IMG/VR virus record: IMGVR_UViG_2671181050_000008
From: a virus
Taxonomy: Duplodnaviria > Heunggongvirae > Uroviricota > Caudoviricetes
DNA: 4,612 bases
Reading direction: 5' to 3' (one strand)
The translations under genes and the position numbers were made by a program. The notes beneath the pieces are model-generated. The model was not told the DNA's origin. It did no database searches and worked only from the letters and a program-made list of their open reading frames with translations. Below are positions 2,960 through 4,612 of the stretch, piece by piece. Each line of letters opens with the position of its first letter. The stretch's first letter is position 1.

Positions 2960-3385
2960 TCAATGCACAGCCACAATATTTCCTGCAGGGCCACCACGAT
3001 TCATCTGGTTGAAACCAGCGATCGCCACTGCGACAAAATCATCAGCGTCTCTCACCAGTCGTTCCCGCGTCTCCACCAGCTCCCGAAAATAAGCTGAACT
3101 GTGGCTGCGCATTCGGGCCACCAGCAGAGGCGGCATTGCTTTTTCGATCGCTGGTAACAACGCCTGAATTTTTTTAACCGCATCAGGAGTGTCTTTCTCC
3201 ACCCAGCGGAAAATTTTCTGGGTATTGCGAGCCAGGGCTTCCGGATGGCTGTCGTCATATAATTCCGGGAACGTCATACCAAGCTCAAAATAAGCCCGGG
3301 TTATTTCAGCTGCCGGAACTTTTTCACCGTCCGGATGCGCCCAGGCATTCATCGCCATGCGGATGTGCTCATGCCTGATTTTCAT
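2960..3385 (-). CDS. ydaT: YdaT-like protein (proposed CII functional analogue), 141 aa
   Basis: ATG at 3385..3383 is preceded by GGAG 7 nt upstream. Start overlaps the end of the Cro-like gene by 17 nt. Size (~140 aa) and position between the Cro-like gene and the replication genes match ydaT of Rac-type prophages. Assignment is mainly by synteny. Confidence 0.65.
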   Translation of the reverse strand: MKIRHEHIRMAMNAWAHPDGEKVPAAEITRAYFELGMTFPELYDDSHPEALARNTQKIFRWVEKDTPDAVKKIQALLPAIEKAMPPLLVARMRSHSSAYFRELVETRERLVRDADDFVAVAIAGFNQMNRGGPAGNIVAVH

Positions 3386-3644
3386 GAATCAACTCCGATG
3401 CATTTGGTGTGTTAGCCTTGAATCCAACAGGTAAGCCGTCGGTTGGATTCGGGTAAATATCAGGCCGGAGTTCATGAGGTGTAACCTCGAAATTCGTTAC
3501 TTCAGCAACACGTAATGCTTTTTCAGGGCTGAATCTTTCATAGCCCCCCAGCACTCGACTTACATGCACCTGAGATAAACCCGTTAGCTTCCCAAACTGT
3601 AGCTGGGTGATATGTTTCTCTTTTAAATAGTCTCTTAAGTTCAT
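3369..3644 (-). CDS. ydaS: Cro-like HTH regulator, YdaS family (91 aa)
   Basis: Track start at 3650 is TTG; ATG at 3644..3642 is preceded by GAAGG 6 nt upstream. HTH segment (ITQLQFGKLTGLSQVHVSRVL) and C-terminal ELRPDI motif match E. coli K-12 YdaS as I recall it (CEELRPDIDW). First gene downstream of the divergent promoter region. Confidence 0.75.
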   Translation of the reverse strand: MNLRDYLKEKHITQLQFGKLTGLSQVHVSRVLGGYERFSPEKALRVAEVTNFEVTPHELRPDIYPNPTDGLPVGFKANTPNASELIHENQA

Positions 3645-3674
3645 AGCCAACCTTCTACGTTATGCCTCGAGCAA

Positions 3675-3703
3675 ATATTAGCCCCGCTAATTTTAAAGAT
3701 CAA
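3675..3703 (-). promoter_or_regulatory. P_R-like sigma70 promoter for the Cro-like operon
   Basis: Read on the - strand: -35 TTGATC (plus 3698-3703), 17-nt spacer, -10 TAATAT (plus 3675-3680). Predicted start near 3668, about 24 nt upstream of the ATG at 3644. Confidence 0.5.
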
Positions 3704-3717
3704 TAGCCAGACTATCT

Positions 3718-3745
3718 TTGATAATATTGGTAAAACAAATAAACT
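3718..3745 (+). promoter_or_regulatory. P_RM-like promoter for the repressor, probably giving a leaderless mRNA
   Basis: -35 TTGATA (3718-3723), 16-nt spacer, -10 TAAACT (3740-3745), which places the start at or next to the A of ATG 3752. No Shine-Dalgarno precedes the ATG. Lambda cI from P_RM is leaderless. Confidence 0.4.
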
Positions 3746-3751
3746 CTATGT

Positions 3752-4213
3752 ATGAAAAAAACACGCGAAGTGATTGCAACTCCAGAAGCGAGCAAGAATT
3801 TAAAAGCCGCATGGAATGCAAGAAAAAAAGAGCTGAAGCTGACTCAAGAGCTGGCGGCTGAGTTGTTGGGATTCGAATCTCAAGGCACCGTTAGCCAGTA
3901 TCTGAACGGCAAGATACCGGTAAATACCGACGCTGCGCTAAAATTTGCGGCTCTGTTAAAGGTAAAACCAGAGGACATTCGAGAAGACCTTAAAGACTTA
4001 ATGAATTATGTAAGATCATCAGATACTTATGATGATAACTTTTCAGGCAAAGGATGGAGGCTGGTCAATGAAGAACAGGCAGAGTTACTTAACCTCTTCG
4101 AGATTCTACCTGCGTCAGAAAAAGCCAAACTCCTTAACCAGCTACGTGGACTAAACAAGCTCTACGAGGAAGCCTTCGAGAACATGCTGGCACTAAAGAA
4201 ACGTAACCAGTAG
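3752..4213 (+). CDS. CI/RacR-like HTH (XRE-family) prophage repressor, 153 aa
   Basis: ATG start. HTH segment LTQELAAELLGFESQGTVSQYLNGK. Divergent from the Cro-like gene across ~100 bp of promoter/operator DNA. Size close to RacR. No peptidase-like C-terminal domain is obvious. Followed by an intrinsic terminator. Confidence 0.75.
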   Translation: MKKTREVIATPEASKNLKAAWNARKKELKLTQELAAELLGFESQGTVSQYLNGKIPVNTDAALKFAALLKVKPEDIREDLKDLMNYVRSSDTYDDNFSGKGWRLVNEEQAELLNLFEILPASEKAKLLNQLRGLNKLYEEAFENMLALKKRNQ

Positions 4214-4237
4214 CCACCGCTCACTACCCCATCCACA

Positions 4238-4270
4238 ACAAAAAAACCGACGTCTTAGTCGGTTTTTTTG
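4238..4270 (+). terminator. Rho-independent terminator, potentially bidirectional
   Basis: A-tract 4238-4246, stem CCGAC (4247-4251) / GTCGG (4258-4262) with loop gtctta, then TTTTTTT (4263-4269). Lies 25 nt after the repressor stop codon. Confidence 0.8.
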
Positions 4271-4366
4271 TGCCATAACTTCTGCAAATCAGCTGTATAA
4301 CTAATATTTTTCCCTTGAAAAAACATTTACATAGTTACCAAATCAAAAATATCATACGCCATACTG

Positions 4367-4395
4367 TTGACTTAAAATATCCGCGTTACTAATAT
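4367..4395 (+). promoter_or_regulatory. Near-consensus sigma70 promoter for the downstream gene
   Basis: -35 TTGACT (4367-4372), 17-bp spacer, -10 TAATAT (4390-4395), with AT-rich DNA upstream. Predicted start near 4402, giving a ~65-nt leader. Confidence 0.6.
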
Positions 4396-4466
4396 TTCTA
4401 TCAAGAACAGCACGGCGCTGTAGGTTTTAGTTCCGCCACCCGGCGTTAAGGGGAAATGAGGTCAGC

Positions 4467-4612
4467 ATGGATACTATCGAGCTTGGCAACAACGAATCTC
4501 TGGTGTACGGCGTGTTTCCCAACCAGGACGGCACATTCACCGCGATGACGTATACCAAAAGCAAAACGTTTAAAACCGAAAATGGTGCCCGTCGCTGGCT
4601 GGAAAGAAACTC
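4467..4612 (+). CDS. 5' part of an unidentified protein (MDTIELGNNESLVYGVFPNQDGTFTAMTYTKSKTFKTENGARRWLERN...), truncated by the window edge
   Basis: ATG at 4467 is preceded by GAGGT 4 nt upstream. Open to the window end. No in-window ORF-track entry, because it runs off the edge. Confidence 0.55.
   Translation, partial: MDTIELGNNESLVYGVFPNQDGTFTAMTYTKSKTFKTENGARRWLERN

Follow-up and report, generated by a model that had tools for sequence, protein, structure and literature searches.

The element considered here is the 107-bp intergenic gap (positions 3645-3751) between a cI-like repressor gene and a divergent cro-like gene in a 4,612-nucleotide stretch of caudovirus DNA (IMG/VR record IMGVR_UViG_2671181050_000008; this whole stretch is called the window), and its closest described counterparts are the repressor/cro switches of phage lambda and of the E. 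coli prophages CP-933P, Rac and Qin. In CP-933P, a prophage of E. coli O157:H7 with the regulators PaaR2, YdaS and YdaT, 5' RACE mapped the right promoter (PR) and the repressor-maintenance promoter (PRM) in a 97-bp intergenic region, with a leaderless paaR2 mRNA (PMC8630535); the footprints of repressor and Cro overlap, a copy of the operator is found at the left promoter (PL), and the system is bistable (PMC8630535, PMC9986795). In the same prophage, TTGATT-N6-AATCAA was footprinted as OM, the operator of YdaT (PMC9986795). As for Rac of K-12, RacR has three operators of the form WTAGGC-n3-GCCTAW, of which O1 sits on the promoter of ydaS, and one mapped racR transcript has no leader (PMC9638921). 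Finally, Qin has DicA, DicC and dicBp; for DicA an antirepressor and a RecA-independent, Cro-dependent bistability have been documented, and dicBp is located upstream of ydfA (bioRxiv 10.1101/2023.04.14.536235).

The repressor/cro region and its sister switches

Seen from these systems, the stretch 3645-3751 is likely to serve a Rac-like lambdoid prophage as its right operator/promoter region (OR), with a lambda-like repressor/Cro switch and candidate 21-bp operators, as judged from sequence comparison. A first-pass annotation of the window had described a lambda-like divergent PR/PRM switch at this place, and that description is backed by the gene content, by promoter hexamers at fixed positions in ten diverged lineages, and by the precedent of the sister prophages (PMC8630535, PMC9638921). 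The ten lineages are the window and nine further ones whose repressors are 58-99% identical to that of the window, namely Rac-SA53, one relative each from Enterobacter ludwigii, Hafnia alvei and Serratia, and five metagenomic or unassigned contigs; a scan of genome contigs returned only Escherichia albertii and distant matches, and the diversity was obtained via protein search and contig look-ups. The gap between repressor and cro genes measures 104-107 bp in all ten lineages. With this locus, a known kind of switch gains a new immunity specificity; in a literature search, no paper naming WP_000753626 or WP_001053425 was found, nor any description of the immunity region of Rac-SA53.

Regarding the repressor, its gene (3752-4213, plus strand) encodes a protein of 153 amino acids (aa; WP_000753626.1) with an HTH_3 domain in Pfam, and its N-terminal 80 residues match the N-terminal domain of lambda CI (phmmer, E 2.6e-4). 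The AlphaFold model of the N-terminal part has a predicted local distance difference test (pLDDT) value of ~87, and its best PDB match is the operator-bound N-terminal domain of lambda CI (1lmb; template-modelling score, TM, 0.78; 29% identity); nine of the top ten Foldseek matches are lambda CI N-terminal domains and one is a lambda-186 hybrid repressor, with TM values reaching 0.83 and identities of 27-31%. For the C-terminal 45 residues, the model gives two helices at low confidence (pLDDT 50-70); these residues carry the motif ELLxxFxxLPxxE, common to Qin DicA and to a PaaR-type regulator of O157:H7. By BLASTP, the C-terminus is 38% identical to that of DicA over 42 aa (E 8e-6), the O157:H7 PaaR-type protein is matched with E 2e-5, and no similarity to K-12 RacR is detectable (E 26). 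An S24 peptidase domain, as used for LexA-like self-cleavage, was not found in the repressor, for which the Pfam search gave only HTH_3 and HTH_31; some homologues of its N-terminal domain do carry PF00717. Homology shows the protein to consist of a lambda-CI-type N-terminal DNA-binding domain, with a basic arm conserved from residue 2, followed by a C-terminal domain that is short, helical and of the DicA/PaaR type. In one relative (L062), 6 A instead of 7 A are found just after the repressor start codon; the resulting frameshift is either a sequencing error or the mark of an inactivated repressor.

On the minus strand, the cro-like gene (3369-3644) encodes 91 aa (WP_001053425.1) with the Pfam domains YdaS_toxin and HTH_3, and the Prokaryotic Genome Annotation Pipeline names it a YdaS family helix-turn-helix (HTH) protein; its PF15943 score is 30.9 bits against a cut-off of 30. 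It is preceded by the Shine-Dalgarno-like sequence AGAAGG, with a predicted duplex of -5.9 kcal/mol with the anti-Shine-Dalgarno sequence. Across lineages, the N-terminal HTH part of YdaS co-varies with the repressor, and its recognition helix, SQVHVSRV, starts like that of the repressor, SQGTVSQY; the C-terminal 35 aa are common to a YdaS of O157:H7. YdaS is followed by the cII-like gene (2960-3385, minus strand), assigned to YdaT_toxin in Pfam (PF06254, 39.1 bits against a cut-off of 21) and to the CII-like activators in PHROG; its product is ~97% identical to PDB 3c4r and ~85% identical to YdaT of CP-933P (8bt1).

Compared with lambda, the divergent gap is 107 bp instead of 100 bp, the N-terminal domains of the two repressors are homologous, and the candidate sites are centred at -19, -43 and -68 from the repressor start, versus -19, -42 and -66 from the cI start for the annotated lambda operators; a second operator set at a PL-type promoter and a leaderless repressor mRNA, both predicted here, add to the likeness. 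The differences are a repressor without the S24 self-cleavage domain, candidate 21-bp sites built as 9-3-9 dyads of different sequence instead of 17-bp sites, a Cro of the YdaS family and a CII of the YdaT family, and a candidate left operator (OL) only ~700 bp from OR. CP-933P has the same gene order and a YdaT operator that recurs here with one mismatch, but its operators are four 18-bp palindromes with the consensus GTTTAGTAA, and its paaA2-parE2 toxin-antitoxin pair does not follow the repressor gene in the window. The O157:H7 PaaR-type paralogue mentioned above, which starts MMSALE and not MQKKE as PaaR2 does, is 25% identical to the repressor, mainly in the C-terminal helices. The likeness to K-12 Rac lies in the position within a Rac-type prophage and in operators with a 3-nt spacer, which resemble the WTAGY-N3-RCTAW cores of the window; however, YdaS and YdaT are only 32% identical, RacR is not recognisably similar to the repressor, and O3 of RacR overlaps the racR start codon, whereas the third candidate site of the window ends 9 bp upstream of the ATG. 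As for Qin, its repressor is likewise short and non-cleavable and resembles that of the window in the helix motif of the C-terminus, and a PL-type promoter again precedes ydfA-ydfB-ydfC...dicB, with common sequence downstream of the promoter. Neither the DNA-binding domains nor the Cro proteins resemble each other, however, and different DNA has taken the place of the promoter/operator segment.

Divergent promoters and the repressor mRNA

The PR-like promoter is read on the minus strand from a predicted start at ~3668, with the -10 hexamer TAATAT at 3675-3680, inside the left arm of the first candidate operator (OR1), and, 17 bp away, the -35 hexamer TTGATC at 3698-3703, which includes a GATC at 3698-3701. 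On the plus strand, the PRM-like promoter has its -35 hexamer TTGATA at 3718-3723 and its -10 hexamer TAAACT at 3740-3745; the spacing is 16 bp, the two hexamers together reach 9/12 in a consensus promoter scan, and the predicted +1 falls on the A of the ATG at 3752. All the element coordinates listed by the first-pass annotation proved exact, both for these hexamers (GATCAA 3698-3703, TTGATA 3718-3723, GATC 3698-3701) and for the repeats discussed below (AAAGAT 3695-3700, ATCTTT 3714-3719, AATATT 3674-3679 and 3723-3728), and its predicted starts, 3668 and 3752, are indeed 84 bp apart.

Both promoters gain support because they are conserved in relatives. For PR, ATATTA is located at -76/-77 from the repressor ATG in nine of the ten lineages and (G/A)ATCAA at -53/-54 in nine, in eight of them as GATCAA, so that the form TTGAT(C/T)-17-TAATAT is kept in 9/10. 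For PRM, a TAnnnT hexamer (TAAACT, TAAAAT, TAAGAT or TAGAAT) occupies exactly -12 to -7 from the repressor ATG in every lineage, and the six nucleotides between this hexamer and the ATG vary freely. The -35 hexamer of PRM is not conserved in the distant lineages, where weak TT-rich hexamers are found, and this fits a weak, activator-dependent promoter.

The ATG at 3752 is the first possible start of the repressor frame, with no in-frame start upstream of it, and the anti-Shine-Dalgarno sequence finds little or nothing to pair with ahead of the repressor ATG (-2.8, +0.4 and +0.2 kcal/mol). In the Serratia relative, a GAGG lies only 1 nt from the ATG. The conservation of the basic N-terminal arm from residue 2 also bears on the start. 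The same 6-nt spacing of -10 hexamer to ATG recurs in CI homologues of Pseudomonas phages (~41% identity). Leaderless starts have been mapped for lambda cI, paaR2 and racR (PMC8630535, PMC9638921). From the fixed -10 hexamer, the lack of a usable Shine-Dalgarno sequence and of an upstream start, and these mapped precedents, we infer that the repressor mRNA is leaderless, which is the most likely reading; the leaderless mRNA proposed in the first-pass annotation is accordingly rated probable.

The main competitor is a real switch whose repressor mRNA has a leader, either from a start further upstream or solely from a YdaT-activated promoter of the establishment type (PRE), with translation lacking a canonical Shine-Dalgarno sequence. 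It can draw on K-12 racR, which has several starts besides the leaderless one, and on a YdaT site at 3374-3391 resembling the one in CP-933P, whose YdaT activates a promoter of the PRE type; the invariant position of the -10 hexamer in the ten lineages and in the Pseudomonas-phage homologues, the missing Shine-Dalgarno sequence and the three mapped leaderless starts speak against it, and a leader is considered unlikely.

The Pseudomonas-type viral contigs (L064-L069) encode full-length CI homologues of 248-255 aa, ~41% identical in the N-terminal domain; in the ~20 bp upstream of the CI-like gene, they too have a -10-like hexamer, TATTAT, 6 nt before the likely ATG. Their upstream repeats are different (TAGTAC, ACCTTTGGCATT). 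The leaderless layout may be common to the family of this N-terminal domain.

Candidate operators at OR and at the PL-like promoter

The first-pass annotation had taken the inverted repeat AAAGAT/ATCTTT and the palindromic AATATT hexamers as candidate operators. Better candidates are probably 21-bp dyads of the 9-3-9 type, AATATTAGY-N3-RCTAATATT, centred at 3684, 3709 and 3733. OR1, AATATTAGC-CCC-GCTAATTTT at 3674-3694, is complementary at 8/9 positions and is the strongest dyad of the region, overlooked by the first-pass annotation (P ~0.014); a matching site is present at the corresponding position, -67/-68, in nine of the ten lineages. OR3, AATATTGGT-AAA-ACAAATAAA at 3723-3743, agrees with the dyad pattern at 14/18 positions, and seven lineages have a matching site centred at -19. 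The weaker OR2, ATCAATAGC-CAG-ACTATCTTT at 3699-3719, has the core ATAGC-CAG-ACTAT (3703-3715), which the variant C3707T, present in 20 of 29 close haplotypes and in E. ludwigii, turns into a perfect palindrome. In this arrangement, OR1 covers the -10 hexamer and spacer of PR, OR3 covers the spacer and -10 hexamer of PRM, and OR2 lies between the two -35 hexamers, the position from which lambda CI touches sigma.

The AATATT hexamers thus find their place as the outer arms of OR1 and OR3. Their occurrence twice in 107 bp is unusual (P ~0.011), four of the seven AATATT of the window fall in candidate operator sites, and both hexamers extend into the longer conserved arms AATATTAG(Y). The central AAAGAT/ATCTTT repeat is a poor operator candidate. 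The corresponding model, in which repressor and Cro would recognise AAAGAT-N13-ATCTTT, centred at 3707, and AATATT as such instead of the 9-3-9 dyads, has in its favour that the repeat is perfect and placed between the two -35 hexamers, that in the window alone the symmetry about 3707 (7/12) is comparable to that about 3709 (5/9), and that AATATT is over-represented. However, a perfect 6-bp inverted repeat with a gap of up to 20 arises in 44% of dinucleotide shuffles of 3645-3751, and this one is not conserved: it keeps only 3/6 in the relative from E. ludwigii, which has an identical repressor HTH, is changed in an E. coli variant (L058), and is absent from the PL paralogue, while AATATT is part of the longer arms. 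Its centre is two bases from that of OR2 and its right arm lies inside OR2. We regard this model as quite unlikely.

Among the 29 close haplotypes, 21 of the 107 intergenic positions vary; the coding DNA on either side has 7 variable positions in 145 and 12 in 149. Changes recur at 3665-3666 and 3671-3672 near the PR start, at 3683-3686 in the spacer and innermost base of OR1, and within the OR2 core at 3704-3711. Hardly any variation touches the operator arms or any part of 3712-3751, a distribution that favours the dyads. This intergenic polymorphism could mean tuning of operator strength or merely relaxed constraint. Elsewhere in the window, AAAATAAGC-CCG-GGTTATTTC at 3287-3307, inside ydaT, agrees with the OR1-derived dyad at 14/18 positions; the match is probably due to chance because its score is near the level reached by whole-window shuffles.

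As for the left side, a PL-like promoter on the plus strand, TTGACT-17-TAATAT at 4367-4396 (9/12 in the promoter scan), is located upstream of ydfA, like dicBp of Qin. A pattern symmetrised from OR1 alone, AAWATTAGC-N3-GCTAATWTT, finds inside it the candidate OL1, AATATCCGC-GTT-ACTAATATT at 4376-4396 (plus strand), with 15/18 agreement (P 0.002 for its 253-bp region and 0.0075 for the window as a whole). The alignment of PR with PL is in register, and OL1 sits in PL as OR1 does in PR. The relatives have a similar paralogy between their own OR and PL, at 19/21 positions in Hafnia, 18/21 in one contig (L076) and 17/21 in Serratia, all with P <=0.003. OL2 and OL3 are not convincing in the PL region; an OL3 at 4327-4347, with only 6/18 by hand count, is not claimed. 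Upstream of PL there are also an operator-like site at 4288-4308, ATCAGCTGT-ATA-ACTAATATT, which reaches 13/18 with a good right half only, and a second promoter-like match, TTTACA-18-TATCAT at 4326-4355 (10/12).

Several points weigh against this picture of the switch and its 9-3-9 operators. TTGATC-17-TAATAT of PR scores only 8/12, below the threshold of the consensus scan, which therefore did not report it. OR2 is not recognisable in the lineages with 58-74% repressor identity, and its support comes from window-type lineages only; moreover, both OR2 and OR3 reach only 12/18 when scored with the OR1-only pattern. The core pattern WTAGY-N3-RCTAW has exact matches in the window only at 3678-3690 (the OR1 core TTAGC-CCC-GCTAA) and 3703-3715 (the OR2 core), with 0.04 expected, and these are also the only ones in the 25-kb prophage segment (L001) examined, but the pattern was written after both sites had been seen. 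The ungapped 21-mer similarity of OR to PL within the window is 15/21, which is the level of chance (P 0.33), and the case for OL1 consequently rests on the dyad-pattern test and on the relatives. Oligomerisation and cooperativity of the repressor are assumed, the C-terminal model being of low confidence. Finally, a co-variation of residue 49 of the recognition helix (Q in the window type, H in the others) with the half-site core (TTAGC versus TTAC/TTAA) was considered and set aside as suggestive and not clean: a Serratia relative of the H type also has GCTAAT.

The GATC inside the -35 hexamer of PR is a separate matter, and the first-pass annotation had suggested that it could allow Dam-sensitive control. 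In a -35 hexamer, positions 5 and 6 usually tolerate the most variation, and the GATC is kept at its fixed position in eight of the ten lineages, which exceeds what the role of a -35 hexamer by itself would demand. The relative from E. ludwigii lacks it, and so does the E. coli variant L058, which stands outside the ten-lineage set and has TATC in its place; the GATC is shifted to -47 in the Serratia relative, and most PL paralogues have no GATC. Dam control of PR is possible but unsupported, and the chance that this lytic promoter is wired to Dam methylation appears slim. If it were, Dam methylation, or hemimethylation behind the replication fork, would alter the strength of PR or the binding of repressor and Cro at the overlapping arm of OR2, giving a switch independent of SOS a replication-coupled or epigenetic input.

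The host prophage and the proposed circuit

The chromosomes of E. coli 042, ABU 83972 and VR50, among others, match positions 3300-4612 of the window with 100% identity, and among 5,426 complete E. coli genomes, ~180 contain most of this segment. The copy of E. coli 042 belongs to a lambdoid prophage adjoining ompW, which spans from the integrase beside ompW to an antiterminator gene and contains the integrase, an excisionase, an exonuclease, dicB, ydfABC, the window genes, RusA and the antiterminator gene. The module of the window type is also found on viral contigs of 40-55 kb, and the layout is kept in relatives from Hafnia, Serratia and Enterobacter.

This context bears on the idea that the locus is a toxin-antitoxin-like module, with YdaS and YdaT as toxins restrained by the repressor, rather than a lysis/lysogeny switch. 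The Pfam names YdaS_toxin and YdaT_toxin point that way, and so does the lethality of racR silencing in K-12 through ydaS and ydaT (PMC5700377, PMC5700373). The surroundings, however, form a complete early region of the lambdoid kind, including replication genes of the O and P type, antiterminator, exonuclease, xis and int; YdaT, whose structure has been solved, binds DNA and is an analogue of CII; and YdaS and YdaT of CP-933P were shown to be regulators, not toxins, as Jobling also argued, which makes a toxin-antitoxin module very improbable. It is likewise highly unlikely that the switch has stopped working and survives only as the remains of a decaying cryptic prophage, a view that could appeal to the frequent defects of Rac-like prophages and to the repressor frameshift of L062, but which is at odds with the number of complete genomes that carry the module, with the near-invariance of promoter and operator arms in 29 haplotypes, and with the layout preserved across genera and on the large viral contigs.

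Regarding the action of YdaT, an operator-like repeat, CTGATT-TTCATG-AATCAA, is located at the ydaS/ydaT junction (3374-3391), where it covers the start codon of ydaT together with the last part of ydaS; it differs from the CP-933P site by one mismatch, and in an O157:H7 locus the exact site occupies the corresponding place. YdaT probably binds this sequence and would then drive an establishment promoter. In the proposed circuit, PR, starting near 3668 on the minus strand, would express the Cro-like YdaS, the CII-like YdaT and the replication genes, while the weak maintenance promoter TTGATA-16-TAAACT would start on the A of the ATG at 3752 and so produce a repressor mRNA without leader. The repressor is predicted to bind the 21-bp dyads as a dimer or a higher oligomer; at OR1 and at OL1, inside the PL-like promoter 700 bp downstream and before the ydfA-dicB operon, it would shut off PR and PL, from OR2, centred at -43, it could help RNA polymerase at PRM as in lambda, and at OR3 it would exert negative autoregulation, this site being also the likely first target of the YdaS Cro. 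Induction driven by RecA is not expected because the repressor has no self-cleavage domain; by analogy with DicA and PaaR2, it would probably involve an antirepressor or a spontaneous, RecA-independent and Cro-dependent bistability.

As for the boundaries of the module, the similarities to other prophages delimit a mosaic segment at ~3440-4405 of the window. On one side, the 3' third of ydaS and ydaT are common to prophages of the CP-933P type, and 3,068 of the 5,426 complete genomes contain ydaT DNA, adjoining many different cro types; on the other, the DNA from ~4407 onward is common to dicBp-ydfA of Qin. The part between these boundaries would be the exchangeable immunity cassette.

The remaining features of the window complete the picture. 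A strong intrinsic terminator follows the repressor gene at 4238-4271 (plus strand), with an A-tract, a 14-bp stem and a T-tract (dG -19.7 kcal/mol, z -6.2); it is symmetric, and a pattern scan overlooked it because the A and T tracts had been absorbed into the stem. ydfA (DUF1391) begins at 4467 on the plus strand, and the other minus-strand genes are an O-like initiator with a DnaT domain, a lambda-P-like gene, DUF1627 and DUF977. The initiator gene contains two clusters of (G)TCGTGAC(A) repeats phased at 10 bp, at 2421-2491 (~5 copies) and 2701-2762 (~6 copies), which are 250 bp apart and resemble the iterons of replication origins. Towards the 3' end of ydaS, and within the gene, an inverted repeat with 9-bp arms, GAATCCAAC-N13-GTTGGATTC at 3420-3450, overlaps the codons of the invariant PTDGxP motif, and coding constraint may explain its conservation; alternatively, it could be a secondary YdaT site or a hairpin. 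Rfam gave no match within the window.

In conclusion, this type of immunity is present in the pathogens 042 and VR50 and in the asymptomatic bacteriuria strain ABU 83972, and the switch controls a prophage carrying cell-division inhibitors of the dicB type. Known operators and promoters would aid the prediction of superinfection immunity and of prophage induction in the strains that carry it. The gain is incremental because the general mechanism is already established in the sister systems; the locus is also a natural comparison for the lambda paradigm, as it joins a DNA-binding domain of the lambda type and a different, non-cleavable C-terminal domain with an operator spacing near to that of lambda.

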